This document shows, piece by piece, positions 4,995-47,415 of a stretch of 64,000 nucleotides of DNA; within the stretch, counting starts at the first letter, position 1; every line of letters starts with the position of its first letter. Position numbers and translations under genes: made by a program. The notes beneath the pieces were generated by a model. The model was not told the DNA's origin. It saw nothing but the letters and a program-made list of their open reading frames with translations, and made no database searches. This DNA comes from a virus (lineage: Duplodnaviria > Caudoviricetes). The DNA is taken from the IMG/VR virus record IMGVR_UViG_3300027365_000007. One strand, 5' to 3'.

Positions 4995-5797
4995 TTCTTA
5001 AGAAACCATTCATCAAATTCACGGAACGTCATATTTTTGATAATGTCACGCATAATCACAAATTTCTTAGCACGTTCCTGATCACCCTCTTTAAAGCTCT
5101 TGAGAGCTACGGCATCATACTTTGACTTCAGGGTGTTCTGAGCATAGCCATATATTTTAAAAGGCTTCTGTGGCTTCTCTCCGGGCATTCTAGGCTGATT
5201 CACAATCATCTGCTTCACATCTTTGACTACATTTAGATATTCTTCAGTACCTTTTTGGTTTTTAGCTTCTTGTTTGGAGATACTAAACTTCTTTTCCATA
5301 GTAGGTCTGATTTCAGATTCTTTCTGATTACTCGCCATAGCATCTTTCTTGATAATTGAGCTTCTTACTTCTTTGCGTATATACGGACGTTCTTCAAAGT
5401 CACCCAATGCCGAATCATAAAGCGCATCTGTAATTTCATCAACAGAATATTTTGGATAAAACTTAGTAACCCATTGATCAATTACTGCATAAACATCTCC
5501 GATACGTGCAAGCTCTTCACGAGTTATACCACGCAATTCTTCCGACTGCTTAGATTCAGGTTTCTTCTCACTCTTCTGGGATTTTAGATATGTGAAAAAT
5601 TCACCGGGAGAAACCTTCTTAATTGCTTCCTGTTCATCACCCTCAAGCTCATTACCCAACGCTTTACGTACACTGTAAAACTTATGAGACGCATTATTGA
5701 ACTCACCAGTTGTTTTACGAAACCTGTCTAACAGCTTCTGTAAAAGTGTTTCGTCTGTCTCAGTAATGATGCTTTCAACCAGATCTAAAATTTTCAT
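4988..5797 (-). CDS. Putative internal head protein with N-terminal leader MKILDLVE
   Basis: Leader motif; CTAAATA late-promoter variant upstream. Confidence 0.6.
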   Translation of the reverse strand: MKILDLVESIITETDETLLQKLLDRFRKTTGEFNNASHKFYSVRKALGNELEGDEQEAIKKVSPGEFFTYLKSQKSEKKPESKQSEELRGITREELARIGDVYAVIDQWVTKFYPKYSVDEITDALYDSALGDFEERPYIRKEVRSSIIKKDAMASNQKESEIRPTMEKKFSISKQEAKNQKGTEEYLNVVKDVKQMIVNQPRMPGEKPQKPFKIYGYAQNTLKSKYDAVALKSFKEGDQERAKKFVIMRDIIKNMTFREFDEWFLKNQ

Positions 5798-5832: not shown

Positions 5833-6867
5833 TTAGGAATTATTTTTATTCTTTATGTAATATTCCAATAGTCCGTATAAATCCCCACCCACTCCATTGT
5901 TTTGCAAAACTGCGTATGGACCTTTGGGTAACATAATCTCAGTTCTATCATTTTGTGCTATAATGTCTTTCAAATCTTCTGTCTTTTCGATACTATCAAC
6001 ATATTTCTTCGACTCACTTACAATCCATTGTTCTTTATAATCACGAAAAGCTTCTAAGGTAAGGATAGTCAGTTCATATAATAGCTTTTCAAATTGATCG
6101 TAGTATTCCCCTTCAAGCTCTGAAATTTTTTCTAAGCTATACATCATAGTTAATACATTGAACATTTCTCGATAAGCAGCTTTGATAACGGCTTCATTGA
6201 TAACAAAATCAAAGTCATTTAATTCTGTAAGTTTAGCGTTAGATATAAATCTGATAAAAATTGTATCAACATAATTCGAAATATGTTTATTAATATAACG
6301 ACCTATATCCGGTTTGATATATCCACCAAATAAGGCATCAATCTTATTAAGCAGTGATTTTACTTTATCAGTTTTTGAAAAGTCCTTAAGCATGGAACTA
6401 ATATTGTTTCTATACTTAACACTGTTGAATATTTTACTACTGACATACATATCATCTACCAATGTACTGTAATATAATTCATAATCACTAGAAAGTGGGA
6501 AAACTCTAAAGACTTCTCCATATTCTGAGGCTTGTGAGGGACTTAACGTTGCGAAAACCATAGAACGTATTTGAGCACCTAACTTATCATTTGATATGTC
6601 GTTGATGGTATTGTGTATGACATTTGGTGTATCCATGGGTTTTTGACGATAAACTATGTTATTGACTTCACCACTCTTCAATTTTCCACCATGATATAAC
6701 ATGGGTATATCATTTTTTACAATTTCCCACGATGATTCTATATCGCTTAAATCCAGACTCTCAAACCAATCTTTAAGATTGATTTCAAAAAATTCACTGT
6801 TAATGATTTGATCATATAGTGAATCTAATGATTCATTTTCTTCTTCAAATAAATGTTTTATTTTCAT
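5833..6867 (-). CDS. ADP-ribosyltransferase-fold paralogue A with leader MKIKHLFEE
   Basis: LYHGG...PMDT...VFAT...ASEYG...TEIML; TATAAATA promoter upstream. Confidence 0.6.
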   Translation of the reverse strand: MKIKHLFEEENESLDSLYDQIINSEFFEINLKDWFESLDLSDIESSWEIVKNDIPMLYHGGKLKSGEVNNIVYRQKPMDTPNVIHNTINDISNDKLGAQIRSMVFATLSPSQASEYGEVFRVFPLSSDYELYYSTLVDDMYVSSKIFNSVKYRNNISSMLKDFSKTDKVKSLLNKIDALFGGYIKPDIGRYINKHISNYVDTIFIRFISNAKLTELNDFDFVINEAVIKAAYREMFNVLTMMYSLEKISELEGEYYDQFEKLLYELTILTLEAFRDYKEQWIVSESKKYVDSIEKTEDLKDIIAQNDRTEIMLPKGPYAVLQNNGVGGDLYGLLEYYIKNKNNS

Positions 6868-6889
6868 TTTAAATCCTCATGTATACGGT

Positions 6890-6910
6890 TATTTATAACT
6901 GTTATAAATA
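6890..6910. promoter_or_regulatory. Divergent pair of T4-type late promoters
   Basis: Perfect inverted repeat TATTTATAAC-T-GTTATAAATA gives TATAAATA on both strands. Confidence 0.8.
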
Positions 6911-6938
6911 TATGTAACGCGATAATAGGGGTACAATT

Positions 6939-7389
6939 TTGAGAGTATATGATGTAAGTTTAAAGAAAATAAAGATAGGAAAGCGTATAGTAAGTTTGCT
7001 ATCTGACGATAATTGGCTAACAAACAATCCATCAATATGGAGTTTTTAATAGCGGTGAGTTGACCGCACAATCTACTGGTTCAGGTTATATTGCCTACCA
7101 GACTATTGATTCGTTAGAATTAGGAAAGGACTACGAAATATCGTTTGATGTGGATTTCTTTGAGGTGGTTGATTCAGCGCCAACATTGAACTTTGTTCTA
7201 GGAGATGTCAATAACACATCACAACGCAAGGGGATTAGTGATGTACGTGGTGGTGGTAGTACGAAATCCTATACAGGTACTTTAACGTGTTACGACAAGA
7301 CACTTAGGTTTTGGAATAATCGATATGTGACATCAGTCCCAAGGTTTTCAGGAAGAATATACAATCTGGTATTGAAAGAAATAGAGTGA
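6939..7389 (+). CDS. Beta-rich late protein split by a +1 frameshift at 7043-7049 (149 aa if fused)
   Basis: RBS AGGGG then TTG 6939. Frame 0 ends AGT TTT TAA; skipping one T gives ...NPSIWSF-NSGELTAQSTG, which joins ORF 7060..7389. Confidence 0.55.
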
Positions 7390-7400
7390 TAAAATAATAT

Positions 7401-8603
7401 ATGCGAATATTCAATCTTAAAGAAGGAATAGAGGAATTAGATCTAGAATCTTATAAGTCTCTTATTGAAGGAGATTACTCTGACGCGTACAAACTAGTCC
7501 AAGAAGGCAATGTTATATACAAGGGAATGTATGAAATATTCCAAGACCAACCTTACTTTTTTACAAGAATAAAGAACCGTCAGTCAGCAAACGTTCCTAA
7601 TTATTACACATTATGGATCAATAATCATGATGATTGGGCTAGATTTCCTAATAGAAATGTCATTGGTACCACATCGGAAAAGTTTGCCGAACCATACGGA
7701 TTTTTTACTTTAGTAATACTACCTAAAAATGGTACAAAAATTGGTGTTTGTCCGTCTGATGATATTTGGTATTCCTTCCCAGTGCACACCATAATGGATA
7801 AAAATGTTGTTGATGTGTTAGAATTATTTGAACGTCTGTTTGAATACTATTATAATGAAAAACCTACGACATACAACCAACTAATAAAGTTTCTTTCTAA
7901 TATGAAAATTACTGAAGAGGACGTTCAGTCACTTGATGTTTATCCAGATATGGCAGACATTATACAGATGTTAATAAAGAATAATCCTTTAGACGTATTC
8001 CAGAAGTTATTTTACCCTAAAGGCTTCGATATAGTTTCTATGAAGGATATCAGAAACATTAATAATAAAGAAGTTTGGTTTGATGGTGATTTCATAGGCA
8101 TACCATTGGACGATTTTAAAAAGTTTGTACCATTAAGTAGTACATTGAATGAATCGGTTAGTGATTACGATAATTGGACAATGCATGATGAAGAGACGTT
8201 AAAATCCGACTTTGATGAGTATCAGTTTAAAGAGGAACGTAAATGGAAAGATCGTGCGGAACGAATGGGTTTCAGATATCCCATATTCCCAACATTTGAA
8301 AGCTATAAACACAGTATTGAAAATGGCGAGGTGGTAGAATTGTCGGATGATCGTTGGGACGAGATCGAAAATTTATCAAAAAATAGCAGTCTCGATAGTA
8401 TCAATGATATGGTAAATGGGTATACAGTACCACGCGATGTTGAACGTATCAAACAGGGTATTGAGAATGATTCAAAGATACCATATCCTGTAATTTTGAA
8501 AGGAACTAATGGTTACCATATTATGTCTGGAAATACACGAATAAACACCGCACGTGTACTGGGAGTAACCCCGAAAGTATTAATTCTAGATGTTTCTGAA
8601 TAA
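7401..8603 (+). CDS. ART-fold paralogue D fused to a ParB/sulfiredoxin-like C-terminal domain
   Basis: IYKG...IGTT...AEPYG...KEVWF; linker STLNES; C-terminus IPYPVILKG...YHIMSGNTRINTARVLG. Confidence 0.55.
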   Translation: MRIFNLKEGIEELDLESYKSLIEGDYSDAYKLVQEGNVIYKGMYEIFQDQPYFFTRIKNRQSANVPNYYTLWINNHDDWARFPNRNVIGTTSEKFAEPYGFFTLVILPKNGTKIGVCPSDDIWYSFPVHTIMDKNVVDVLELFERLFEYYYNEKPTTYNQLIKFLSNMKITEEDVQSLDVYPDMADIIQMLIKNNPLDVFQKLFYPKGFDIVSMKDIRNINNKEVWFDGDFIGIPLDDFKKFVPLSSTLNESVSDYDNWTMHDEETLKSDFDEYQFKEERKWKDRAERMGFRYPIFPTFESYKHSIENGEVVELSDDRWDEIENLSKNSSLDSINDMVNGYTVPRDVERIKQGIENDSKIPYPVILKGTNGYHIMSGNTRINTARVLGVTPKVLILDVSE

Positions 8604-8668
8604 ATTAATTAAAAGACTTGAAATGGCTGATAGTATCGGGTATACTATTAATAAATAGGAGAGATGAT

Positions 8669-8845
8669 ATGCCAATCGTATTGACCGAAGCACAAAAATC
8701 AAAAGTAGAAATTCTGAAAGAAGCTGTTGAAGATGCAGATATCATTTCAGATGAAGAATTTACTAACATCATGTACGAACTTAAAGATCAAGGTGTTGAC
8801 GTTGAAATGGTATTGCGTGAAGATTATGGAATCGATTTTGAATGA
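8669..8845 (+). CDS. Small acidic late protein (MPIVLTEA...)
   Basis: AATAAATA plus RBS AGGAG upstream of ATG 8669. Confidence 0.65.
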   Translation: MPIVLTEAQKSKVEILKEAVEDADIISDEEFTNIMYELKDQGVDVEMVLREDYGIDFE

Positions 8846-9192
8846 AGCTTATTGATTTAGGACTCAAAGGAATATTTGAGTCGAAAGAGTATAAAATAAA
8901 AAAGTCAAAGAAATTTAACAAATTCAAGATTAAATATTCGAATAAAAAGAGTAATATTAAACTCCTTGATAACTTGGTTAAAACCCTTCAGAAAGAAGGT
9001 GAGATAGTTGATCATGGTGTTCACCGTATCAATCAACCTATCTACTCAGAATATACAGGCGGTAATGAAACGGGTTGGCAAAGTGTGTATATTTCCAAGA
9101 GTGATGACTTGCGCCTAATGTATAAACGATTCAATGATGGAGTCATTGAAGTGAAATTTGGAAAGGCTACAGACGTAGGTTACACACATTAG
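8842..9192 (+). CDS. Hypothetical late protein with leader MKLIDL...IFE
   Basis: Overlapping start/stop; leader motif. Confidence 0.65.
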   Translation: MKLIDLGLKGIFESKEYKIKKSKKFNKFKIKYSNKKSNIKLLDNLVKTLQKEGEIVDHGVHRINQPIYSEYTGGNETGWQSVYISKSDDLRLMYKRFNDGVIEVKFGKATDVGYTH

Positions 9193-9201
9193 TATAACCT
9201 A

Positions 9202-9972
9202 CTAATCCCATATCTCTTCTGTGAACTCATCCCACATATCAGGACTTATCAAATAGAAACCGTCTGGCATATAACACATAATCTCTGTCTCCCGTGGAGG
9301 AATATCTTCTGATCCAACTATTTTATGAACGTTGTAATCATCACTAATGTCTGTTTCAATGGTATTATATAATTCGGATATAAATAGTTCAATAAAAGTG
9401 TCGCCTATTTCTTTTTCATGCTCTGTTTCATATTTTATTGATTCTTTAACTTGTTTAACTTCATCAAGGCTTCGGCAATATTCTATCTTGAAAATCTCTC
9501 TATTATATTTTGAAACGACATCGTTCAATTCTTCACTTGTGATATCATCATCCAACTCTTCTATTTCATCAATGATTTGATCGGCAACAAATGCAGGCAT
9601 GTCCTCTGCGTTAAACTGTGCCGTGAAATCTTCAACACCTTCCGCATAGTATAGTGTATAATCACCGACAGGAACGACTACTTTAAGAACACCATATGCG
9701 TCGGCAGTATTATGATCTTGCGTTGCATAGAAAAGGTCTCGTATAGGTAATCCATAACTCTGCTTAAGGATCTGATTGGCTATAGCGTTGATAATCTGCG
9801 GAGTGTCTTTAGAGCCCTTCCTAAAGTGAAATTTGTTTAATGTATAGGGATCAACGTTCCCACCTGTACCGTGATATAAAGTGAAATCGGGGTATTTGTG
9901 TTGGAAATCTTTTACTGCGTTAAACAGTTGTTCATTGTTTTGGTTTTCATTTAGTATATCTTTTATTTTCAT
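9202..9972 (-). CDS. ART-fold paralogue B with leader MKIKDILNE
   Basis: LYHGT...SKDT...FYAT...ADAYG...TEIMC. Confidence 0.62.
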   Translation of the reverse strand: MKIKDILNENQNNEQLFNAVKDFQHKYPDFTLYHGTGGNVDPYTLNKFHFRKGSKDTPQIINAIANQILKQSYGLPIRDLFYATQDHNTADAYGVLKVVVPVGDYTLYYAEGVEDFTAQFNAEDMPAFVADQIIDEIEELDDDITSEELNDVVSKYNREIFKIEYCRSLDEVKQVKESIKYETEHEKEIGDTFIELFISELYNTIETDISDDYNVHKIVGSEDIPPRETEIMCYMPDGFYLISPDMWDEFTEEIWD

Positions 9973-10403
9973 TTTATTTCCTTATATGAGCTTCGTATAA
10001 CTTGCGCATTGTTATCTTTAGCCCATTTAATTAATGGTGATACATTACCTAAGTCATTCGTCTCAATCGTTCTTAAATGGGTGTCACCCACTACAACAGC
10101 AATTGTTTGATACCGGCAATCATTTACTACATTGTTCAAATGCTTAACCATTGAAACCTCACGCTTTTCAAACTGACTTCTTAAGTCATCATTATATTTC
10201 ACTTCATCTTCCAAAGGGAGAACATCTACGTTGGGTAATGCGTCATTGTAAAATTCTTTATCTTCCCAATACAGTTCGTGGATTATAACATCTGGGTTTA
10301 GTCTTACGACAGCGTTTCTAATTCTCTCAACTTCTTCTGGTATAGTGTGATTTTCACCGTAAATATATACTGATTTTGGGACATCAATATCTTTTATTTT
10401 CAT
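9969..10403 (-). CDS. Minimal TraB/Tiki/ChaN-superfamily domain protein with leader MKIKDI
   Basis: YIYGENH, VIIHE, REVSM and VVVGDTHL match the family metal-binding pattern. Confidence 0.55.
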   Translation of the reverse strand: MKIKDIDVPKSVYIYGENHTIPEEVERIRNAVVRLNPDVIIHELYWEDKEFYNDALPNVDVLPLEDEVKYNDDLRSQFEKREVSMVKHLNNVVNDCRYQTIAVVVGDTHLRTIETNDLGNVSPLIKWAKDNNAQVIRSSYKEIK

Positions 10404-10456
10404 GATTAAATCCTGTATTTTTATTTATTTATCTTCCTTGTGAATCGAATACCTAT

Positions 10457-10705
10457 ATGATATCATTAGTCATTATGAAAAATATAACATTGAAAAAAGA
10501 ATACTACTGGTTAGAAGTGGATCAGCATGGAAACACATCACAGCCTAGAGTGGCTGGTAGTTTCGATGATGGTTACTTTAATTTGAATAAATCTGGAATT
10601 ACAGACAAACATATAGCCATACAACGTCTCGAAAAGTATTATGAAGTTGGTGGTTCTGGTGAATATATTCTTGTTGAAAAGCACATGAAGGATAACAATG
10701 ACTGA
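10457..10705 (+). CDS. Hypothetical protein
   Basis: ORF; start uncertain. Confidence 0.55.
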   Translation: MISLVIMKNITLKKEYYWLEVDQHGNTSQPRVAGSFDDGYFNLNKSGITDKHIAIQRLEKYYEVGGSGEYILVEKHMKDNND

Positions 10706-11087
10706 GGATATTGCAACGAACAAAGTAAATGATAAGTTATTATATAAACAGCCACAACTGTCTTATGTGATAAAAGTTGTAAAATTACGCCATAGATTTA
10801 TTTTTTATGCACAGGACCGTACCGGCTATGATTTTAGTACTTTATACGATTTATGCATTAATCAACCAACTCAACAATTATGTGATATTCTAAGGGACTA
10901 TGTAACAGAACCATACAAAAATCTAGAAGCTGAAATTTCCTTTGATTCACGGCAATACAAAGAAATATTTCCAAAGGGTTCTGAAATTAGATACTTCTAT
11001 GTAATGATTAGATTTAAAAGTCGGGATAAAATTAATAAAATGAAACTGAAATATCCCAAGCTGATGGATGAGATAGGGGTAGCATAA
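10698..11087 (+). CDS. Hypothetical protein, F..N.FKL..P family
   Basis: C-terminus VMIRFKSRDKINKMKLKYPKL. Confidence 0.65.
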   Translation: MTEDIATNKVNDKLLYKQPQLSYVIKVVKLRHRFIFYAQDRTGYDFSTLYDLCINQPTQQLCDILRDYVTEPYKNLEAEISFDSRQYKEIFPKGSEIRYFYVMIRFKSRDKINKMKLKYPKLMDEIGVA

Positions 11088-11455
11088 TGCCATCTAGTGA
11101 AAATATACATCATTTAACGTTAGAATATGCGTGTAACCGTTATGCTTTTTGTCAATATGTAATCGGGAATCATAGTAATTTCAAATCACAAACAATTAAG
11201 CATGAGGTAATACATAATCGTTCTGGAACACAGTATGAAGAGTTGCTGAACATTCTTGAAGAGTATGTTAAATCCTCTATCAAACCTATTTGGGATGTTG
11301 CAATCAATGTTGACGTAGAACATTCTAACCTATTATTCCCAACAGGACTTAATCAGCGAACAATAGTAGTTCATATCAAAATAGATGCTGATGTTTATAA
11401 TCTATTTAAATTAAAACACTCAAAATTCCATCAACAGCTTAAATCAACTCAATAA
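11087..11455 (+). CDS. Hypothetical protein, F..N.FKL..P family
   Basis: C-terminus VHIKIDADVYNLFKLKHSKF. Confidence 0.65.
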   Translation: MPSSENIHHLTLEYACNRYAFCQYVIGNHSNFKSQTIKHEVIHNRSGTQYEELLNILEEYVKSSIKPIWDVAINVDVEHSNLLFPTGLNQRTIVVHIKIDADVYNLFKLKHSKFHQQLKSTQ

Positions 11456-12383
11456 GTTCTAGAAAAACATCAACCATGAATTCAGATTGATAATCTATTG
11501 CATATGCGTGTTTAAAAAATAACATAGCTTCATATTTTTTTAGGTCTGACGGATCTTGTGTTTCTTCGATTTTGTCCACGTAACGTTTTATATTACCCAT
11601 GTAATTATTAATAATTGTACCGAGTGTTCTTTTAATACTGTTTAGAACTCTATCAAAATTATCATGGTTGCTTATAACTTCTTTCAAATACTCTTCACAT
11701 TCTTCTATTACACGCTGTTTGAACTCTTTGAAAGTTTTAAACTGCTCGTCATCCAATACACTAGTTACATAGCCGAAGAAACCATACACACTGTCTTCAA
11801 CATTATTTTTAAATGTATTATTCTCACCCATTGCATATGCCATATTATCAAGAATATAGCTAGTGAAGTGACCACCAAACTCTCCATGACTCGCGGCACT
11901 GAATCCATCAGTAAAATCGGTAACCCCGAGTGAATAGAAAATCTTATACTCTCCAAGAGGAAATATTATATATGGCGAACCATAGGATTTTGCACTTTTA
12001 ACCTGAGTTGTAACAAACATACCGTTGCGCACATTCACGCCATATTTTTTCTTTGATAGGTTATTAATATAATTATGAATAAAAACATTAGTGTCTTTAG
12101 GTTCGGTTCTTTCGCGAAATTCTAGATATTTGATGTCACCCATCAAGGTTTCAGTGCCATGAAATAAGAAATTGTCATATACGAACTTTTTAATTATATC
12201 GCCTTGGTTTTGTACTTTAGGATCATAGTTCCTTACGTTTGCATTGATTTGTTCTATCTTATCTTCTATGTATGAAAAGTATGGCGAGTTGTATATGTTT
12301 CTTGCAACGATTTCAGACGTAAGTACACCCTTATCTTCGTTTACTTGTTTATAAATTTCTGGAAATATATCTTCTATATTCAT
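11439..12383 (-). CDS. ART-fold paralogue C with leader MNIEDIFPE
   Basis: LFHGT...PKDT...FVTT...AKSYG...YEAML; TATAAATA at 12407-12414. Confidence 0.62.
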   Translation of the reverse strand: MNIEDIFPEIYKQVNEDKGVLTSEIVARNIYNSPYFSYIEDKIEQINANVRNYDPKVQNQGDIIKKFVYDNFLFHGTETLMGDIKYLEFRERTEPKDTNVFIHNYINNLSKKKYGVNVRNGMFVTTQVKSAKSYGSPYIIFPLGEYKIFYSLGVTDFTDGFSAASHGEFGGHFTSYILDNMAYAMGENNTFKNNVEDSVYGFFGYVTSVLDDEQFKTFKEFKQRVIEECEEYLKEVISNHDNFDRVLNSIKRTLGTIINNYMGNIKRYVDKIEETQDPSDLKKYEAMLFFKHAYAIDYQSEFMVDVFLELIELI

Positions 12384-12483
12384 ATTTTCAGCCCTTTTGT
12401 TTATTATATTTATAAAGGGTTTGAAAATGCTACAGAAAGTGAGAGGGATCTATCAGAAGAAATAGAAATGTATACTATGAAAG

Positions 12484-12696
12484 TTATTTACCTTTACTAT
12501 CTAAAAGCATGACATAGTTAGTAACGTCTCCGTCATTAATATAATTAATATCAGATGGCGATACCCAATTTAAAGGGGAAAGCCATTGATTGCCATCCCG
12601 ATCAATTCCTACTGCAACTACAGAATCGCCACCAGTGTTCCAGTAAAAACGATAGATACCAATATCAAGATTGTTTATTTCATCCTTAGTAATCAT
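12484..12696 (-). CDS. Hypothetical protein (70 aa)
   Basis: ORF in minus-strand operon. Confidence 0.6.
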   Translation of the reverse strand: MITKDEINNLDIGIYRFYWNTGGDSVVAVGIDRDGNQWLSPLNWVSPSDINYINDGDVTNYVMLLDSKGK

Positions 12697-13115
12697 AGCT
12701 TTTTCCTTATCTCTTCAATAACTTCATTTTCAAAATAAGCAATGGTTTCCATTTCTTTTTGATACAATCGGTTTTCAAGAAACCAAAAAATTTTACGCTT
12801 ATTTTTAGGCCATATGATGTTACGTTCTTCAACTTCTTCATCGTCATAGAAAAGCCGAGTTTGTAATGTCAATGAGCTACATTTCCCTACATTAGAAATA
12901 AAGAAAAAAGCTTCATCACTAAGTGTTGAAAATGTAATAGACAAACCATGTTTGACATCTTTTGGAACATAGGGATGCTCTTATGGATTGTTGGACATGT
13001 ATTTAATTTTATCTAGCTCTTCTGGACAGATATCTTTAAAATAGTCAGAGATAATATCATAAAGATACCTTGAATCCAGATCGTTATTTGTTTCTATGGT
13101 TATTGTATATCCCAT
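12693..13115 (-). pseudogene. 140-codon gene interrupted by an in-frame TAA at 12981-12983
   Basis: ATG 13115 ...MSNNP-TAA-EHPYVPKDVKHGLSITFS... continues in frame into ORF 12693..12944. Confidence 0.6.
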
Positions 13116-13117
13116 AC

Positions 13118-13480
13118 TCAACCTTCACCTTCTTCCAAATCGCGGTAATATTCTTCATCCGGTTTCCATGGAAATAGTTCTGAAATATGGAAGTAGCATA
13201 CCATTCCATCTGGAATGTCCATATTACCGTTTGTGTATACTTCTTTGTACAATGTAGATTCATCGTCGCAATTACGATAAGGGTTTTCTACAAGGCACAC
13301 GTAACGGTATTTCCATACACCCCAACGTTTGATATGTTTTTTAGCCCATTGAAAACATCTCTCACGAAGTTCTTCCTGTTCCTTTTCACGAATAATATCT
13401 TGTTTCCGAAGAAATTCTTCGCGTTCCCGTTCTTCGAGAATATAATTAGGGGTAAAAAATTTCTTAATTTTATGAAACAT
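13118..13480 (-). CDS. Hypothetical protein (120 aa)
   Basis: ORF in operon. Confidence 0.65.
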   Translation of the reverse strand: MFHKIKKFFTPNYILEEREREEFLRKQDIIREKEQEELRERCFQWAKKHIKRWGVWKYRYVCLVENPYRNCDDESTLYKEVYTNGNMDIPDGMVCYFHISELFPWKPDEEYYRDLEEGEG

Positions 13481-13740
13481 TATCGTACCCCGCTGAGGTA
13501 TTTTTGAGCCAGACCGTCGATCCAGTCATTGAGTTTAGTTTGTTGTACTTCAGTTACTTCGAATCGTTTGTTAGGGGAGCCCTTACCAGACGCAATCATA
13601 TCTTGGACTGCATTACGCATGAACTCAATATGCTTTGAATTAATCCAATAAGGATTATTATGGGAAAGACTTGTACCAGTACGCTGAAGATCAGTCATGG
13701 CTTTCACTTTCTTTTTCAGTTGCGGCATAGTTGCTTTCAT
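13480..13740 (-). CDS. Hypothetical protein
   Basis: RBS GGAG places the start at ATG 13740. Confidence 0.65.
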   Translation of the reverse strand: MKATMPQLKKKVKAMTDLQRTGTSLSHNNPYWINSKHIEFMRNAVQDMIASGKGSPNKRFEVTEVQQTKLNDWIDGLAQKYLSGVR

Positions 13741-13765
13741 AAGTAATCTCCATTTCAGTAGTACC

Positions 13766-13794
13766 ATTATAACAAAGGTAAAACTAAAAGTAAA
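13766..13794 (-). promoter_or_regulatory. sigma70-type early promoter
   Basis: TTTACT-17 nt-TATAAT with extended -10 TG. Confidence 0.75.
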
Positions 13795-13795
13795 A

Positions 13796-13990
13796 TTATT
13801 TTTTCAAAGTACGATGTTCTTCCCAATCTAGAACATCATATCTTCCTGTTACAACACCCCATGCATGTTTCAAACGTGTTTTCAATGACACAAATTTATA
13901 ATTTTCTGCACGAGCGGGAATCCATTCATGATGGTTTGTTTCAACTTGAGTATCCCAATTTTTAATCTGCTCAGCCGTATACTTAGACAT
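13796..13990 (-). CDS. Hypothetical protein (64 aa)
   Basis: ORF in operon. Confidence 0.6.
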   Translation of the reverse strand: MSKYTAEQIKNWDTQVETNHHEWIPARAENYKFVSLKTRLKHAWGVVTGRYDVLDWEEHRTLKK

Positions 13991-14180
13991 TACCTTCCCT
14001 CTCTTTTAAATCATTTACCACTTTATGAATCATTTTATGATCGACGTATCCTACTGTATTATCGACGCAGTACTTAACCATATCTCTAGGTAATACGTTG
14101 TTAGTAGTTAACAACCTACGATACATGAGATACGATTTCTTTTCATAATCTTTCAACCATGGCGCAACATTTTTAACCAT
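13983..14180 (-). CDS. Hypothetical protein (65 aa)
   Basis: ORF in operon, RBS GGGG. Confidence 0.6.
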   Translation of the reverse strand: MVKNVAPWLKDYEKKSYLMYRRLLTTNNVLPRDMVKYCVDNTVGYVDHKMIHKVVNDLKEREGNV

Positions 14181-14188
14181 AAAGCCCC

Positions 14189-14455
14189 CTAAATTCTTTC
14201 AGCCCAACCCATAGGCATTACATTGTATTTTGAACCACACTTAGAACACTTGATGTTCTGTGCCATTCCACCACTAGGCCCTTCAAGAAATTCACTATTA
14301 CCACAATCAAGACAACCATTTTTCGTTAGTTCATCAAACATCTTTTCATTCTCAGATCGGTTATCTTTCTTAAGTGATTTCATCATTTGTTTAAAGTAAG
14401 TACCCTTGTAAGTTGTTCGATTACGGTAATTGCCTTTAGGCCAAATATTAAACAT
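14189..14455 (-). CDS. Zinc-ribbon protein
   Basis: CLDCG...EGPSGGMAQNIKCSKCG. Confidence 0.65.
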   Translation of the reverse strand: MFNIWPKGNYRNRTTYKGTYFKQMMKSLKKDNRSENEKMFDELTKNGCLDCGNSEFLEGPSGGMAQNIKCSKCGSKYNVMPMGWAERI

Positions 14456-14457
14456 TA

Positions 14458-14748
14458 TTATTCCTCGATTTTAACTTTTCTTGAATCATAACAGTAACCA
14501 TCACCAACTTTCAATCGGGCTTGGTTAACTTCAACTTTCATACCATTTTCTAATAAAATGATAGCATCCCTACGCTTTAGCTCAAGAATTGCTTCAACCT
14601 TACTTTCACCAAAACAGCGAAATTCGTATGTCTCTCCCCACCAAAAACCATAGGCGATAAATCCAACAAACATTAGTATAGTTACCCATCCGACAAACTT
14701 TTCGCCATTACCATTTAGAATTTCCCACAGCTTTTTTCTAAAGCTCAT
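14458..14748 (-). CDS. Small membrane-anchored protein
   Basis: Hydrophobic FVGWVTILMFVGFIAYGFWW. Confidence 0.6.
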   Translation of the reverse strand: MSFRKKLWEILNGNGEKFVGWVTILMFVGFIAYGFWWGETYEFRCFGESKVEAILELKRRDAIILLENGMKVEVNQARLKVGDGYCYDSRKVKIEE

Positions 14749-14926
14749 TATTACGCCTCGATTCCATTAGCTTTTCGACAGCTTCCAAATCACGCTTAAG
14801 CTCTTCGCTATTAAGAAGTGCCTCCCCATCTTTAACTCTTACGCTTGGACCAGTCCATTCAACATTTGATTCAATGTTATCTGGCATATAAAACAGTCCT
14901 TTAAGAAACTTCATGATCTTATTCAT
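14738..14926 (-). CDS. Hypothetical protein (62 aa)
   Basis: ORF in operon. Confidence 0.55.
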   Translation of the reverse strand: MNKIMKFLKGLFYMPDNIESNVEWTGPSVRVKDGEALLNSEELKRDLEAVEKLMESRRNNEL

Positions 14927-15138
14927 AGGTTTCCACCAATAGTCAATGTGCCTACCTTTGCTTTTTTAAAGCCAAACCTTCTCAGTTGTTCTTCAGCACT
15001 TTTAACATCGCGATCATTTTGAAATGCAGAACTTTGTAAACCAGTTTCGGCAAGAGAATTGTATTCATCAGATACCCATGTTGAAACTGTCACAGGCATA
15101 TCAAAGTCGCTGTACTGTTCTAAATTTACAATCAACAT
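14923..15138 (-). CDS. Hypothetical protein (71 aa)
   Basis: ORF in operon. Confidence 0.55.
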   Translation of the reverse strand: MLIVNLEQYSDFDMPVTVSTWVSDEYNSLAETGLQSSAFQNDRDVKSAEEQLRRFGFKKAKVGTLTIGGNL

Positions 15139-15139
15139 G

Positions 15140-15352
15140 TCACATATCCTTTTTAGGTTTATAGATTTGGAAATCTACTTCAGTTGTAGCAAAAACGATT
15201 GTATTATTTGGAAAGTTTTGTCTGAGTGCATTAGCTAAAGACTTTGTATAACTTTGTGTTGTATCTTTGTCGATCTTAATCAAAAGAACTTCGTCTTCGG
15301 ATAACTCAAACTTTTCAATACTTTTAATTTTTGCTTCATCATTTTGATTCAT
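15140..15352 (-). CDS. Hypothetical protein (70 aa)
   Basis: RBS GAGGA. Confidence 0.6.
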   Translation of the reverse strand: MNQNDEAKIKSIEKFELSEDEVLLIKIDKDTTQSYTKSLANALRQNFPNNTIVFATTEVDFQIYKPKKDM

Positions 15353-15450
15353 AGACTTCCTCGAATTTGGCTCAGCGGTACGATGATCATATCACCCCTG
15401 CGTTCTGGCATTAACCCTTCCGCTGAAAGCTGGCAGTACAGCTACACGTG
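15353..15450 (-). other. GC-rich structured intergenic element
   Basis: CAGCGG/CCGCTG encloses TGC/GCA and TGAT/ATCA hairpins; competing AGCTG/CAGCT hairpin. Confidence 0.4.
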
Positions 15451-16413
15451 TTATTTAAAAAAGCCACCAATACCAAATGATCCTAATGGATGACCACCAC
15501 ATGGCGATCCACGATTAGAAAGTTTCTTGGTAGAGATTTTAACTTCACTATTTGACGCATCATAAATGAAGTTAATGATTTCGTCATACTTAACGGTACT
15601 AGGCCCATAACTTCCTTTGGTAATGTATTCACTTTCGACAAGGCTGTCTTTCACGATAGCATTAATAAGATCATTGTAACATTTGTCTTTAGGATCAACA
15701 AGTCCCTTAACATTCATTTTATTTTTGTTGACTTGGAAGTGTGCTTCATCGTTAAAAATACGAACCTCACCATTCCATTCAAAATAATCAGCAACACGTT
15801 GGTATACATGAACTATTTGATTTTCATAACTCGGTACATATGTACAATCATCTTTATCTTCAGTGCATTTAAACTTACCTAGATAAACCATGATGTCATT
15901 GAAAGAACCATAAAAAGGAACACCAACATCTACCTTAGAAGTAGTTTTCTTTTTACCTTTTGGTGCAAATGTCTTCTCGAAGTCTTTAAATTCCTGACTA
16001 TCTTTACGTACAAAGAAATAGTTTGATCCGGCATAACGAAAAGCCATTTCAGATTTAATAACACCTTTTCTTACTGATCCGTTGATAAGAAGTTCAACCA
16101 TACCATCAGTACGGAAATCAAACTTCAAGTAACAGTCATGTTCTTTATTATAAACAACGGCTGACGGAACCTTTGCACTTTGTCCACGACTATCAACATC
16201 ATCATAGATAATAGCGTCTTTAAAACTGTTTGGTGTTTCAATTTCTAAGCAAGGCACTTTTGAGCGATAGCCTTCAGCCCAACGACGTGCACCACTACCA
16301 TCATGGTGTGGGAGTTTCGGCCAAGAATCATACAACGGTTTTCCATTATAAGTCTTACTAGAATTGGCACCGCAATAAAATACAATTTTAGAACAAGTTT
16401 TTTCGACAGCCAT
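15451..16413 (-). CDS. Hypothetical protein (320 aa)
   Basis: Long ORF, RBS GGAG. Confidence 0.75.
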   Translation of the reverse strand: MAVEKTCSKIVFYCGANSSKTYNGKPLYDSWPKLPHHDGSGARRWAEGYRSKVPCLEIETPNSFKDAIIYDDVDSRGQSAKVPSAVVYNKEHDCYLKFDFRTDGMVELLINGSVRKGVIKSEMAFRYAGSNYFFVRKDSQEFKDFEKTFAPKGKKKTTSKVDVGVPFYGSFNDIMVYLGKFKCTEDKDDCTYVPSYENQIVHVYQRVADYFEWNGEVRIFNDEAHFQVNKNKMNVKGLVDPKDKCYNDLINAIVKDSLVESEYITKGSYGPSTVKYDEIINFIYDASNSEVKISTKKLSNRGSPCGGHPLGSFGIGGFFK

Positions 16414-16426
16414 TATTAGTTCTCCA

Positions 16427-16672
16427 CTATTTAATTACAAACGATTGTTTGTCTTTTTTCGTGTTAATATACACATTCCTTACTGGTTCTTTGGACCGGA
16501 AAGATTGACGATATTCACATTTTTTACAAACAAAATCTTTAATAATATAATCATCAAAAAAGTGAAAGTCACATTCGTATTCATGATGACAAACTGCTTT
16601 CTTTAAAAACGTTTTCACACTCACATCAAAATCCTTTAATGACAGAAATGAAATCCAATGCTTGGTCTTCAT
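16427..16672 (-). CDS. Small Cys/His-containing protein
   Basis: CHHEY...CKKC; start probably MKTKHW. Confidence 0.5.
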   Translation of the reverse strand: MKTKHWISFLSLKDFDVSVKTFLKKAVCHHEYECDFHFFDDYIIKDFVCKKCEYRQSFRSKEPVRNVYINTKKDKQSFVIK

Positions 16673-16925
16673 TGAATCCACGCTCAGTTAGGTCACGTGC
16701 CATCTTAAGGTAACGCTTCTTCGCGTAGGATTGTTGAACGTTTTCCCACTTTTCATATTCCCAACCACATCCATCCATATGATTGCTGGTGCACAAGGTA
16801 TCATGGAGAACGGTAGCAAACTTTTGCTCAGGAGTCAAGTTCTTATATTTTTCAATAAGGGCTTTGTGTTCCTTTTCCAGCTTTTTCAGTTCAGATTCAA
16901 TTTCTTTAATAGGTTTATAACACAT
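16626..16925 (-). CDS. Hypothetical protein (99 aa)
   Basis: ORF; LHDTLCTSNHMDGCGWEYE. Confidence 0.6.
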   Translation of the reverse strand: MCYKPIKEIESELKKLEKEHKALIEKYKNLTPEQKFATVLHDTLCTSNHMDGCGWEYEKWENVQQSYAKKRYLKMARDLTERGFNEDQALDFISVIKGF

Positions 16926-16973
16926 GCTTAATATTTCTTTTAAAGTTGCTTGAAACTATCACAATGGCTTAAA

Positions 16974-17309
16974 TTAATCCCACCACAAACCATTTCGTAC
17001 AACATGTTTAGTGGCTACCATGACATCATGAAGTGAATTAGAATCACCCGGTTCTTCACATACACCAGTACGTTTTTCATCACTCAATGCTTCAAGATGG
17101 TCAAGGTTTTGACCATGTGGGACTCGTGTCTTTTCCATACACATAGTAGAACCATCATCGTATACCCAACCACATTCAACGATTTGCTTTGGATATTTCT
17201 GCTGAAGCTCCCCAAACAGGTTAACCCATGTGGGGAACACGCTTGGTTCAAAGTCTACCAGTTCACCATTGACTTTAAAATATTTTTTAATTGCAGTAGC
17301 CATGTTCAC
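16974..17309 (-). CDS. Hypothetical protein
   Basis: RBS GAGGG; TTGTAA-17-TATAAT promoter upstream. Confidence 0.65.
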   Translation of the reverse strand: MNMATAIKKYFKVNGELVDFEPSVFPTWVNLFGELQQKYPKQIVECGWVYDDGSTMCMEKTRVPHGQNLDHLEALSDEKRTGVCEEPGDSNSLHDVMVATKHVVRNGLWWD

Positions 17310-17370
17310 ACCCTCGCGTTATTAACTAACTATACTACTATTATAGTGAATCTAAACCAAAATTACAACA

Positions 17371-17835
17371 CTAAATTTTACATTCAATAGGTTTCATACC
17401 AGAAACCATGTTATGTGTGTAAGAACAAAAGTTATGATGAGCAGGACCAATCTTTTTAAGCGGTGTATCACTATTAGGATCAATAGTGTTCCTATGGTTG
17501 AGTAGATCATAATCAATCATATTTTCGATGATTTTTTCATTTGAATTAAGCATACTAATTATATGATTAGAGCTACTAATAATCTTAGCAATATCGATTG
17601 CATCATACTTTTTGATACTAACCATGGAATCGACATTATTACCCTGACGTTCTTTTTCAAGCACGAATATCTTCATAGTGTCGTTAGGAGCAGACACATC
17701 ATTATCACGGTCGGTATAGATATGAATAACACTATTCTTAGAAAACAGTACTAGCATAGTTCCAGAGGATGTCAAAGGAAGCAAAACCTTTCTAATGTGA
17801 GAGTTGAACATGATTTCTGCATTATACTGATCCAT
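17371..17835 (-). CDS. Hypothetical protein (154 aa)
   Basis: ORF. Confidence 0.6.
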   Translation of the reverse strand: MDQYNAEIMFNSHIRKVLLPLTSSGTMLVLFSKNSVIHIYTDRDNDVSAPNDTMKIFVLEKERQGNNVDSMVSIKKYDAIDIAKIISSSNHIISMLNSNEKIIENMIDYDLLNHRNTIDPNSDTPLKKIGPAHHNFCSYTHNMVSGMKPIECKI

Positions 17836-17890
17836 ACCTAATATCCATATTTTGTTTGTTTTTCTATATTACAGGATCTAAAATCTAAAA

Positions 17891-18391
17891 TCAAGACTCT
17901 AGGTTAATCAGTTTTTTGAACTCTTCCCAGATATCTTTAATTTCCATGTTGTAACAGTCTGCTTTAACCACAAAATTATTGTCACCATCTACCTGACCTT
18001 TCTTGAGAAATCTTGCTTTTTGAAAATAGGTTTCTTTTGGAATCATACCTAAAAACCATAATGTATCCATATTGGCATTTACCCGACAAAAAGCATATAA
18101 GTCGCATTTCTGTTTGGTGTTATAGGCTGCAATACTACATTCATAATAGTCTTTTGGTTTTACGGTAGTACGCTTTGTTTTAACATCAATTGTGACGTTA
18201 TTAAACCATGTCAGATCACTATCGTAAGTGTTGTTATGTTCAGCTCCTAGTAACTCAGCCAAAACAACTTCGCCTACAAATCCTGCTAAGTTTCCTTGAC
18301 CACTTGTAATACTATTGTTTAGTTTTCCTAATTCGTCTGCTAGTTTTTTAGCTTTTTTGATATGATGTTGTTTGATTGGGATTTCTTTCAT
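17891..18391 (-). CDS. PD-(D/E)xK restriction-like nuclease, late promoter
   Basis: GFVGEVV...YDSDL...IDVKTKR; TATAAATA at 18422-18429. Confidence 0.65.
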   Translation of the reverse strand: MKEIPIKQHHIKKAKKLADELGKLNNSITSGQGNLAGFVGEVVLAELLGAEHNNTYDSDLTWFNNVTIDVKTKRTTVKPKDYYECSIAAYNTKQKCDLYAFCRVNANMDTLWFLGMIPKETYFQKARFLKKGQVDGDNNFVVKADCYNMEIKDIWEEFKKLINLES

Positions 18392-18421
18392 TGGTCACCT
18401 TTTAGAATTGTTATGGTGTAA

Positions 18422-18435
18422 TATTTATATAAATA
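18422..18435. promoter_or_regulatory. Overlapping bidirectional late promoter
   Basis: Perfect palindrome TATTTATATAAATA. Confidence 0.8.
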
Positions 18436-18460
18436 AATTTATAGTCTAAAGAGGATAACC

Positions 18461-19399
18461 ATGAAGATAAACGATATACTAAACGAAGCTTTTACTGATA
18501 TTTCCGAAGATAAATTTGAGAAACTTTTAACCACCAAGTTTTCACAAGCTTGGAATCATTACATAAAAACGGGAAATGCAATATTTCGTCACGATGATTC
18601 AGCTAGTGGGTATGATCCAGATTTGGTGGCTAAGTTTGCAACACCATTGAAAAATAGAGAAGCAGCATTTGCTTATAGTAATCTTCATAATGAATATATC
18701 AATAATGGCTCTCAATGGTCTGCATTTCCCAAACGTGCTGTCATTGGTGGATCTAATGCAGATATTGCACGTCGTCGTGGTAGTCCTTCCGGGGTTTATT
18801 TAATACTTCCGGTTAATAACACTCCTATTGGTTTATGCCCACAACACGATATATGGGCATCGTTCGAAAACATTCATGAGATCATGGACAGTGAACCCGA
18901 CATGCAAGTGCTTAACAACTTCTATCGACATCCTTTGTTTATGTTTGCCGAAGCAATAGAATACGTTTTAGACTTTAAATTCTATTCATGGTTAAAAGAT
19001 TCTGGTGGAAGTTATGATAGTTATCGAGATGAACTACGTAACTTTGATGCGTTACTGGATGGCGTAAAAAGACAAGATTACGATGAGGTTGTTGAGTATT
19101 ATGATATCTCTCAGAAACGCGTATTAGATGATGTAGAAGTCGTTAGATGTATCTTTGGGTATGATTACAATGGGGATATGATATCAGAACAATTGCATAA
19201 TTTTTGTTTAGCAGTAAGAAAGAATGGTTTGACAAAAACAATGGATTGGTTATTCTCTCCTAAAAACTTTCAGGTAGGAAAGATAGAAGATGTAATTACC
19301 GATCAAAATGATGATAACGAAGTATGGTTTGATAGCTCTTATCTAATGATACCTTACGTGCATCTTGAAGACTTCTACTATAAATATCAAAATCTATAA
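18461..19399 (+). CDS. ART-fold paralogue E with leader MKINDILNE
   Basis: IFRH...FPKRAVIGG...LILP.N.TPIGLCP..DIWASF...NEVWF; aligns with 7401..8603. Confidence 0.55.
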   Translation: MKINDILNEAFTDISEDKFEKLLTTKFSQAWNHYIKTGNAIFRHDDSASGYDPDLVAKFATPLKNREAAFAYSNLHNEYINNGSQWSAFPKRAVIGGSNADIARRRGSPSGVYLILPVNNTPIGLCPQHDIWASFENIHEIMDSEPDMQVLNNFYRHPLFMFAEAIEYVLDFKFYSWLKDSGGSYDSYRDELRNFDALLDGVKRQDYDEVVEYYDISQKRVLDDVEVVRCIFGYDYNGDMISEQLHNFCLAVRKNGLTKTMDWLFSPKNFQVGKIEDVITDQNDDNEVWFDSSYLMIPYVHLEDFYYKYQNL

Positions 19400-39868: not shown

Positions 39869-39936
39869 AAATATACCTTTTGAATTTATCTATTATATAA
39901 ATACTACCATAACATAATCTTAAAAGGAAATCAACC

Positions 39937-40937: not shown

Positions 40938-40938
40938 A

Positions 40939-41904: not shown

Positions 41905-42013
41905 TTGAGAACCTTTAAATAGTTTTATTATTTACTTTACCATTATATGTGTACATGTCAATTACATAAAATCAATAAATATATAAAACTCTACCATACA
42001 AGGAGTAACCGAG

Positions 42014-42505: not shown

Positions 42506-42515
42506 GCGTAATAAC

Positions 42516-42740: not shown

Positions 42741-42742
42741 GT

Positions 42743-43222: not shown

Positions 43223-43225
43223 AGG

Positions 43226-44640: not shown

Positions 44641-44654
44641 TGTTACTCATTTCC

Positions 44655-44879: not shown

Positions 44880-44882
44880 GTA

Positions 44883-47365: not shown

Positions 47366-47382
47366 AACTTAACCTCTATAAG

Positions 47383-47410: not shown

Positions 47411-47415
47411 TATAG

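Follow-up and report, generated by a model that had tools for sequence, protein, structure and literature searches.

A leader-bearing protein family of T4-related jumbo phages with a probable ADP-ribosyltransferase-type fold

Head-packaged phage ADP-ribosyltransferases (ARTs) are an established theme, represented by T4 Alt, which is injected, and by the ARTs of polyvalent proteins, whose ART-PolyVal domains are phage-encoded and thought to be delivered with DNA (PMC9503650). The T4 capsid-targeting sequence is a 10-residue stretch, and gp21 cleaves on the C-terminal side of Glu (PMC9026906). Here we describe a family with five members in the window, that is, the whole stretch of 64,000 nucleotides analysed. 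It resembles T4 Alt and the capsid-targeting sequence of the internal proteins IPI-IPIII in coming from T4-related phages, in its putative N-terminal propeptide ending in Glu with a hydrophobic P3 residue, in the gp21-type protease of its relatives, in the presence of homologues in virions, and in its probable ART-type fold and presumed role in the first minutes of infection. However, it has no sequence similarity to Alt/VIP2, carries H/R, F/Y and E where Alt belongs to the R-S-E clade, has a large insert of helices separating beta4 from beta5, and counts 13 paralogs in Agrobacterium phage Atu_ph07 and five in the present fragment, against the single Alt of T4. The nearest named viral structural neighbours were ART-PolyVal (PF18760) and the AcrIF11-type H-Y-[EDQ] clade, at TM scores of only 0.25 to 0.48. 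Like ART-PolyVal, the family is phage-encoded and some of its members are fused to effector-like domains, but at E 0.01 or less neither PF18760 nor another ART model matched any of 150 members, and delivery would use a cleavable leader instead of fusion to a MuF or portal protein. The minimal bacterial ART-fold proteins BC2332 (PDB 2AUA; DUF2441, PF10386) and the Arr rifampin ADP-ribosyltransferase are cellular, carry neither leader nor helical insert, and share no detectable sequence similarity with the family; Arr also lacks the beta5 Glu. The original prediction presented the five genes as the best candidate for an undescribed system, which was overstated: this particular unannotated family is new, whereas head-packaged phage ARTs are known.

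All five ORFs were present at the coordinates and on the strands given below, with stop-free translations in which every motif quoted in the original prediction was found. The phi-phi-P strand occurred in all five proteins and AxxYG in four, the product of 18461-19399 having ARRRG. On sequence similarity, 5833-6867, 9202-9972 and 11439-12383 form subfamily A, and 7401-8603 and 18461-19399 form subfamily B.

5833..6867, minus strand: subfamily A paralog 1 (P0001, 344 aa); phrog_15932 E 6.5e-39, A5 HMM E 1.1e-57; beta1 LYHG at 57, beta2 VFAT, distal Glu TEIM at 309
6841-6867, minus strand: P0001 leader, residues 1-9, MKIKHLFEE
6442-6711, minus strand: P0001 N-terminal core, beta1-beta4, about residues 53-142, with H59 (6691-6693), R101 and Y116
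5992-6441, minus strand: P0001 helical insert, about residues 143-292
5938-5940, minus strand: E310 in the P0001 C-terminal core
9202..9972, minus strand: subfamily A paralog 2 (P0002, 256 aa), with the shortest insert; AF2 pLDDT 95.5; LYHG at 32, FYAT, TEIM at 229; H34, R78, Y93 and E230
9946-9972, minus strand: P0002 leader, MKIKDILNE
9283-9285, minus strand: P0002 E230
11439..12383, minus strand: subfamily A paralog 3 (P0003, 314 aa); A5 HMM E 3.2e-58; LFHG at 73, FVTT, YEAM at 284; H75, R119, Y134 and E285
12357-12383, minus strand: P0003 leader, MNIEDIFPE
11529-11531, minus strand: P0003 E285
7401..8153, plus strand: family domain of subfamily B paralog 1 (P0004, residues 1-251); phrog_12810 E 4.8e-36, A4 HMM E 6.7e-74; leader MRIFNLKE, then IYKG at 39, IGTT, KEVW at 223; K41, R85, Y99 and E224
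8070-8072, plus strand: P0004 E224
8145-8153, plus strand: L-N-E site (residues 249-251) closing the P0004 family domain
8154..8603, plus strand: P0004 C-terminal extra domain, residues 252-400, ParB_N/Srx-like
18461..19399, plus strand: subfamily B paralog 2 (P0005, 312 aa); AF2 pLDDT 89.5; IFRH at 41, IGGS, NEVW at 286; R43, R92, R106 (replacing Tyr) and E287; insert at about residues 136-264
18461-18487, plus strand: P0005 leader, MKINDILNE
19319-19321, plus strand: P0005 E287

The start of P0002 overlaps the stop of an upstream ORF (9969-10403) that itself bears the leader. The L-N-E site of P0004 resembles the end of the leader, and the extra domain that follows is kept in the 402-aa orthologue P0025. 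Searched alone, this domain had no Pfam or PHROG match; it reached a language-model score of 0.91 and TM scores of 0.53 and 0.59 to clusters with PF02195 ParB_N in 18-23% of their members.

BLASTP connected proteins within the subfamilies (E 3e-14 and 3e-19) and gave no significant match between A and B. With hhalign, A against B reached 31% probability with shallow alignments versus 94.5% with deep ones (E 7.7e-8, 121 columns). Atu_ph07 array proteins match both the A and B HMMs over their full length and thus bridge the subfamilies, and models A and B both align at TM >0.5 with a single ESM Atlas cluster of 288 aa and 82 members. By these comparisons, all five proteins, A and B, are homologous; the predicted five-member family holds as a set of homologues, but as two subfamilies and not as a single flat family. 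Matches of the family to PHROGs had E 1e-24 to 1e-39, all to PHROGs of unknown function, and searches with the five proteins, with their cores and with 150 members of the family all came back without a Pfam match. The subfamily A profile retrieved 1,781 representative clusters from metagenomes at 50% identity (E 0.001 or less), nearly all matches beginning MK[IL]xxxLxE. We conclude that the family is large, lacks annotation and occurs in T4-related jumbo phages, with 5 genes in this fragment, 13 in Atu_ph07 and at least 7 in SCTP-2, where seven subfamily A genes adjoin the large terminase gene.

The predicted leader was present on all five proteins, canonical in MKIKHLFEE, MKIKDILNE and MKINDILNE and deviant in MNIEDIFPE and MRIFNLKE. 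It comprises nine residues, MKIxDILxE (consensus M-K-I-x-D-I/L-L-x-E), and is also carried by non-family ORFs of the same fragment, as for a tag of the capsid-targeting type. It is uniform inside each phage but differs between phages, reading MKIxDILxE in both this phage and SCTP-2 and M[RK]WxQL[TN]E in Atu_ph07. The leader was poorly packed in both models, with pLDDT <50 at residues 1-7 in model B. When Atu_ph07 proteins were matched to the proteome table by molecular mass, gp53 to gp62 proved to be family members whose computed masses lie within 0.01 kDa of Table S5 (PMC6102473). All ten were detected in purified virions by 3 to 31 peptides each, and gp53 to gp63 together with gp408 belong to the published ESI-MS/MS virion proteome (PMC6102473). 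This 131-protein proteome (714 genes in the phage) includes 18 of the 20 leader-bearing Atu_ph07 ORFs (hypergeometric P 2.8e-12), ten of the 18 being family array proteins; outside the gp53-gp63 cluster, the fraction was 7 of 8. The leader also offers a simple sequence rule that predicts head cargo in this phage group. PF03420, the T4 gp21-type protease, scored above its curated cut-off in SCTP-2 and Atu_ph07, and neither a prohead protease nor capsid genes turned up in this fragment, whose 108.8 kb cover about 25% of the genome. Virion packaging of the family is well supported because leader-bearing homologues sit in the published virion proteome of Atu_ph07, the virion data being the presence of homologues in a distant relative.

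As predicted, ADP-ribosyltransferase-fold structures were the best matches of the conserved core, a result of five separate searches by fold and two by language model. In the fold search with model B, 10 of the top 11 rows were ART-fold chains, which we estimate to be a tiny share of structure libraries. For model A, ART matches recurred in VIA-align, in Atlas and BFVD, and in the language-model search. Behind clusters of the family itself, the Atlas shape search ranked ART-PolyVal, DUF3990, Tse2 ART and AcrIF11 first among named neighbours, and in BFVD the first named matches outside the family were PolyVal ADP-ribosyltransferases. The language-model neighbours of P0002 were DUF2441, Arr-ms, DUF3841 and PARP, and its top three clusters were the same for P0005. 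The predicted core is a split beta-sheet in the order beta1, helix, beta2, helix, beta3, beta4 ... beta5, beta6, and in the predicted model both this order and the motif positions agree with an ART core. Foldseek against the PDB gave no match for model A or model B, and the Atlas shape search with model B listed cNMP-binding domains and no ARTs. Sequence methods linked the family to no ART: the five proteins were unmatched at E 1 or less by known ART families (Pfam PARP, ADPrib_exo_Tox/Alt-VIP2, ART-PolyVal, Arr-ms, DUF2441, PTS_2-RNA and others), ART family HMMs gave no match to the protein cores (E 10 or less) or to the 150 members searched (E 0.01 or less), and HMM searches of PDB sequences found no ART. 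Judged from the models, an ART fold is probable for the family.

The best explanation of these data, to which we assign about an even chance, is that the family consists of packaged ART-type modifiers delivered with the phage DNA. The genes would be transcribed late, and the nine-residue N-terminal tag would work as the T4 capsid-targeting sequence does, directing each protein to the prohead core. We infer that a gp21-type prohead protease would cut the tag off after Glu and that the mature protein, kept in the DNA-filled head, would enter the host with the genome. Its body is modelled as a compact ADP-ribosyltransferase-type core of beta1 (H or R), helix, beta2 (aromatic), helix with Tyr, beta3, beta4, beta5 (invariant Glu) and beta6, with a variable helical bundle of 79 to 150 residues between beta4 and beta5, at the position of the ART target-recognition loop. 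We further infer that the core most likely binds NAD+ and moves ADP-ribose onto a host macromolecule, the target being chosen by the insert, which differs between paralogs. The family proteins are probably enzymes delivered with DNA, by leader and predicted fold, and several pre-made modifiers may be brought in to act before any phage gene expression. Jumbo phages carry more than 100 virion proteins without an assigned role (102 of 131 lack an assigned function in Atu_ph07; PMC6102473), and the family accounts for a sizeable block of these and gives them a testable activity. If its members are active ADP-ribosyltransferases, several pre-made host modifiers would be delivered versus the single Alt of T4, and the insert would be a natural system in which to study the retargeting of an ART core. 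In a bolder form, which we think unlikely but worth stating, the family would form a new and separate clade within the ART superfamily, with mixed H/R at beta1 and its own invariant Arg-Asp-Glu, that ADP-ribosylates nucleic acids or host defence proteins and not RNA polymerase; the hypervariable insert of each co-packaged paralog would disarm another host system within seconds of DNA entry, and T4-related jumbo phages would share a modular anti-defence arsenal that they inject.

Conservation was assessed in 150 subfamily A representatives (P0002 numbering, about 10% mean column identity). Residue 34 in beta1 was H in 91 (61%), R in 43 (29%) and S or K in 9%, and the beta2 residue was F in 92% and Y in 6%; R78 was found in 150 of 150, Y93 in 142 (95%), D115 in 149 and E230 of beta5 in 146 of 147. 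Subfamily B has R/K at beta1, an invariant Ile at the beta2 position and, in P0005, Arg where Tyr is expected, and the equivalents of R78, D115 and E230 (R92, D130 and E287) are invariant. The predicted ART catalytic signature was thus partly retained, in the beta5 Glu and, in most of subfamily A, the helix Tyr, with beta1 and beta2 loosely conserved. H62, N66 and R51 are kept in most family members; the extra invariant residues outside the ART signature (R78, D115 and, mostly, H62 and N66) could point to different chemistry. An alternative that we regard as improbable is a packaged ART-like protein that hydrolyses NAD+, acts on ADP-ribose-derived or other nucleotide signals, or acts as a Tpt1-like phosphotransferase, injected to blunt NAD- or nucleotide-based host immunity and not to modify macromolecules. 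The best structural neighbours Arr, Tpt1 and BC2332 presumably belong to the H-H-h clade. This clade is tied to RNA repair, small-molecule modification and soluble ADP-ribose derivatives (PMC9503650); an invariant Arg (R78, with R51 in most members) suits phosphate binding, and the Atu_ph07 virion also holds an ADP-ribose pyrophosphatase and a NUDIX hydrolase (PMC6102473). However, the invariant beta5 Glu marks transferase/NADase clades, the H-H-h clade having a hydrophobic residue there (PMC9503650), and large, fast-evolving inserts together with many paralogs per genome are easier to reconcile with many macromolecular targets than with a single small molecule. The insert is variable, as predicted, but spans about 79 to 150 residues instead of a uniform length of about 150. 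It lies between beta4 and beta5, where the target-recognition (ARTT or acceptor) loops of ARTs sit, and it diverges faster than the core, with identities among orthologues of 54% versus 76% for P0005 and 43% versus 57% for P0001.

Slightly less credible is the view that these are non-enzymatic internal head proteins, in which an ART-derived or ART-like scaffold serves as head cargo for DNA binding, for filling the capsid or for bringing other effector domains into it, like MuF in polyvalent proteins. The many paralogs found together in Atu_ph07 virions, the loosely conserved beta1 and beta2 'catalytic' positions and the fusions to other modules, namely the ParB_N-like domain of P0004, a region named Zeta toxin domain by UniProt in Atu_ph07 gp53 and a tandem A+B arrangement in gp54, are in line with such a role, but the near-absolute conservation of R78, D115, E230 and Y93 in 150 highly diverged representatives is usual for an active site or a ligand site, and a pure carrier role fails to explain why most family members are standalone proteins. 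Least probable is a spurious ART resemblance hiding a different or new alpha/beta fold of unrelated function, since the lack of a Foldseek match in the PDB is set against rare ART-fold chains that dominate the model B rows and recur for model A, and against a strand and helix order and motif positions that fit an ART core.

Returning to packaged modifiers made late, the genes were predicted to sit in late islands, and T4-type late-promoter-like elements were located as follows.

6890..6897, minus strand: TATAAATA, about 23 to 30 nt upstream of the start of 5833-6867
6903-6910, plus strand: second TATAAATA copy, facing ORF 7060-7389 and 7401-8603
12407..12414, minus strand: TATAAATA, 24 to 34 nt upstream of 11439-12383
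18428..18435, plus strand: TATAAATA, 24 to 34 nt upstream of 18461-19399
18422-18429, minus strand: divergent TATAAATA copy, facing 17891-18391

Of 84 ORFs, 7 had the element within the 60 nt before their start, versus 1.2 expected, and three of the seven are family members. The predicted late position thus holds directly for 5833-6867, 11439-12383 and 18461-19399, each with the element at 24 to 34 nt upstream, and the other two genes lie behind upstream ORFs. A homologue of the late sigma factor gp55 is encoded by Atu_ph07.

The five open reading frames (ORFs) of the original prediction were all found as described, with clean translations, and every motif string quoted for them was located in the translated sequences. 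In PHROGs, the products of 5833-6867, 9202-9972 and 11439-12383 (P0001, P0002 and P0003, all minus strand; subfamily A) matched phrog_15932 and phrog_11975, and those of 7401-8603 and 18461-19399 (P0004 and P0005, both plus strand; subfamily B) matched phrog_12810; all three groups are annotated as unknown function, and no other kind of PHROG was matched. BLASTP matches were significant inside each subfamily, while none was significant between A and B. When the subfamilies were compared by hhalign, shallow alignments gave a probability of 31%, whereas deep alignments, built from 150 diverse representatives of A and 19 sequences of B, gave 94.5% (E 7.7e-8) over 121 columns spanning an N-terminal leader and then beta1 to beta4. 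In addition, several proteins of a tandem array in Agrobacterium phage Atu_ph07 matched the HMMs of both subfamilies over almost their full length, and one ESM Atlas cluster matched both predicted structures with TM above 0.5. Given the deep-profile link and these independent bridges, the observation of a five-ORF family is confirmed, as two subfamilies of one superfamily rather than the single flat family first proposed. An HMM search of all ORFs in the 108.8-kb parent fragment found exactly these five members.

The window occupies positions 17451-81450 of this viral fragment, whose completeness is ~25% by CheckV and whose GC content is ~34%. By protein similarity, the cultured phages nearest to it are all T4-related jumbo phages: Salicola phage SCTP-2 (440 kb), Atu_ph07 (490 kb) and Ralstonia phage RsoM2USA. 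Orthologues of the studied proteins sit on metagenomic contigs 400 to 460 kb long. No GenBank phage was matched when 5833-12383 was queried by megablast, and tblastn returned only distant relatives, namely these three phages and two uncultured huge phages. Among sequencing runs, the complete window was present only in a subsurface metagenome, which is the probable source sample; one freshwater run contained 31% of the sampled words of the window, and no RNA runs were among those listed as containing window sequence. The family itself is large: among 1.84 billion representative proteins, its profile matched 1,781 clusters at an E cut-off of 0.001, and 215 of them at a cut-off of 1e-10. Pfam searches yielded no meaningful match, whether with full-length proteins, cores, 150 family members or neighbouring genes. 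Three profiles run by HMM search against PDB sequences picked up helical noise only, and relatives in BFVD and AFDB are entered as uncharacterised proteins.

The leader claimed for all five proteins was seen on each N-terminus as a 9-residue segment whose final Glu comes two or three residues after a Leu, Ile or Phe. It is kept on nearly all of the 150 family representatives, and it is phage-specific and uniform inside each phage (MKIxDILxE is shared by this fragment and SCTP-2, and Atu_ph07 has M[RK]WxQL[TN]E), a variation that would fit co-evolution with a phage-specific partner. At least seven ORFs of the 108.8-kb fragment outside the family also carry it:

Window 4988-5797, minus strand: leader ORF, candidate head cargo; no Pfam or PHROG match, outside the family by HMM
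Window 8842-9192, plus strand: leader ORF, candidate head cargo; no Pfam or PHROG match, outside the family by HMM
Window 9969-10403, minus strand: leader ORF of 144 aa (MKIKDI...); matches phrog_14325 (unknown function; E 1.5e-12), outside the family by HMM
Fragment 5137-5382, plus strand: leader ORF, candidate head cargo; no Pfam or PHROG match, no family similarity
Fragment 7007-7513, minus strand: leader ORF, candidate head cargo; no Pfam or PHROG match, no family similarity
Fragment 16516-17313, minus strand: leader ORF, candidate head cargo; no Pfam or PHROG match, no family similarity
Fragment 91824-92162, minus strand: leader ORF, candidate head cargo; no Pfam or PHROG match, no family similarity

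The ORFs lacking matches have a leader of the type MK[IL]xDL..E and are, on this basis, candidates for additional head cargo.

T4 internal proteins have a 10-residue capsid-targeting sequence that is removed by a cut of the prohead protease gp21 after Glu, and T4 Alt loses a 7-residue propeptide (PMC9026906). A gp21-type protease is encoded by SCTP-2 and Atu_ph07, above the Pfam cut-off; the prohead protease family PF03420 was not found in the 108.8-kb fragment, which holds ~25% of the genome. The homologous genes of Atu_ph07 form one array:

Atu_ph07 39484-50592: tandem array of 11 leader-bearing genes (gp53-gp63), each with its product listed in the published virion proteome

The Atu_ph07 virion proteome includes gp53 to gp63 with 3 to 31 unique peptides per array protein (PMC6102473, Table S5). 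The computed masses of the array ORFs equal the proteome entries within 0.01 kDa, and the homologous array is therefore physically present in Atu_ph07 virions. When the Atu_ph07 genome was searched with a general leader pattern, 20 ORFs were found, 18 of which had a mass identical to that of a virion-proteome entry against ~3.7 expected by chance (hypergeometric P 2.8e-12); a nineteenth may differ from its entry by the start codon only. Outside the gp53-gp63 cluster, eight ORFs carry the leader and seven of them belong to the proteome, which makes the packaging result independent of any single cluster. These results make it very probable that the family is packaged in virions, in line with the virion part of the original prediction; for its delivery part, we infer that the leader is cleaved and the proteins are ejected into the host. 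In gp63, a 120-residue N-terminal extension separates the leader from the domain.

Of 84 ORFs at least 100 aa long, 7 have the T4 late-promoter consensus TATAAATA no more than 60 nt upstream, compared with 1.2 expected from shuffled upstream regions, and family members account for three of the seven. Of the other two family genes, 7401-8603 follows the ORF 7060-7389, which has TATAAATA at a greater distance upstream, and 9202-9972 follows 9969-10403, which has a one-mismatch late-promoter motif. The stop of 9969-10403 overlaps the start of 9202-9972, so these two are probably co-transcribed. The proposed location in late islands holds directly for three genes; the remaining two have other ORFs in front of them. 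Atu_ph07 encodes a homologue of the late sigma factor gp55, and in SCTP-2 seven subfamily A genes adjoin the large terminase gene. Elsewhere in the window, 59122-61314 (plus strand) encodes a 730-aa protein without PHROG match, and TATAAATA is located 47 nt upstream of this ORF; judging by its Gly-rich N-terminus, the protein may be a fibre or another late structural component.

Several members are fused to other domains. P0004 has a C-terminal extra domain (residues 252-400; 8154-8603, plus strand) that is ParB_N/Srx-like and is preceded by an L-N-E site, which could be a second protease site; in P0025, its 402-aa orthologue, the domain is retained together with an L-D-E site. In Atu_ph07, gp54 consists of an A-type and a B-type domain fused in tandem, and gp53 combines a B-type domain with a region named Zeta toxin domain in UniProt. 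The fusions recall the polyvalent-protein logic of injected phage effectors (PMC9503650), and those in P0004, gp54 and gp53 feed a reading in which the proteins are carrier modules. The reading as enzymes, with NAD-dependent transfer to host macromolecules and targeting by the helical insert, stands evenly poised in our judgement.

AlphaFold2 predicted P0002 (model A) with pLDDT 95.5 and pTM 0.89, and P0005 (model B) with pLDDT 89.5 and pTM 0.87. Both models have an N-terminal helical segment, strand, helix, strand, short helix, strand and strand; after beta4 come a helical bundle, two or three C-terminal strands and a final helix. In a shape search of the ESM Atlas, model A matched the family's own viral clusters first, and then ART-PolyVal, DUF3990, Tse2 ADP-ribosyltransferase (ART) and AcrIF11-type proteins; in BFVD, PolyVal ARTs were the first named matches outside the family. 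A language-model search with P0002 returned DUF2441, Arr-ms, DUF3841 and PARP clusters, and the top three clusters for P0005 were identical to those for P0002; since all scores were below 0.9, these neighbours are leads only. AFDB clusters gave only uncharacterised proteins for model A. In Foldseek against the PDB, neither model had a match at E 0.001 or less. For model B alone, a cNMP-binding sandwich would be a weaker alternative, cNMP-binding domains being listed in the Atlas after the family's own clusters; it was rejected because TM was low (0.24 to 0.33), ART chains ranked higher in VIA-align and B is homologous to A. We consider the ART fold probable for the family.

The 150 representatives of subfamily A share a mean column identity of ~10%. 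Beta1 reads L-Y-[H/R/S/K]-G (91, 43, 10 and 4 sequences, respectively); at beta2, 138 sequences have Phe and 9 have Tyr. By P0002 numbering, R78 is present in all 150, D115 in 149, P101 in 146 and Y213 in 143; Y93 and G94, in the helix after beta2, are present in 142 and 140, and the distal-strand E230 in 146 of 147. Therefore the subfamily A pattern is H/R, F/Y, Y, E. In subfamily B, the equivalents of R78, D115, P101 and E230 are invariant, beta1 carries R/K, the beta2 position is occupied by Ile, and W, C and S residues peculiar to the subfamily are likewise invariant. Diphtheria toxin and PARP have an H-Y-E arrangement, and the subfamily A pattern is similar but not identical to it; the likeness is a lead only. 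The catalytic signature originally proposed is thus retained only in part, as beta1 also has S or K and beta2 has mostly Phe, or Ile in subfamily B. The invariant Arg and Asp (R78 and D115) lie outside the classical ART signature and leave room for different chemistry.

The helical bundle is located between beta4 and beta5, where ARTs such as C3-like toxins and PARPs have the ARTT or acceptor loop for target recognition. The insert is helical and variable, as had been proposed, but its length spans 79 to 150 residues across the five proteins rather than being ~150 throughout, and it is unalignable from paralog to paralog. Among orthologues it evolves faster than the core (identity of 54% versus 76% for P0005, and 43% versus 57% for P0001), which would be compatible with a specificity module.

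That phages package ARTs in their heads is well established, with T4 Alt as the classic case; Iyer et al. 2022 (PMC9503650) argue that packaging contexts apply to about 44% of phage ARTs and that ARTs are encoded by over 40% of jumbo phages. The Pfam ART models gave no match to the family, and the database entries seen were all unnamed. Judged by these models and entries, the proteins fit best as a new and strongly diverged family within the ART superfamily. The claim of an undescribed system goes too far, in that head packaging of ARTs is already known from T4 Alt and PMC9503650; the new element is this unannotated family. Compared with MuF or portal fusion ARTs, this family would use a T4-type cleavable tag, and it occurs in multi-paralog sets. 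Large, unannotated and, as its Atu_ph07 homologues, experimentally found in virions, it is directly testable.

Two further ORFs of the window had database matches. The 184-aa protein of 21307-21861 (minus strand) matched an S-adenosylmethionine lyase family (PF23780, E 1e-10) and is likely an anti-restriction SAMase, and the 430-aa protein of 37-1329 (plus strand) matched the transposase groups phrog_506 and phrog_12300.
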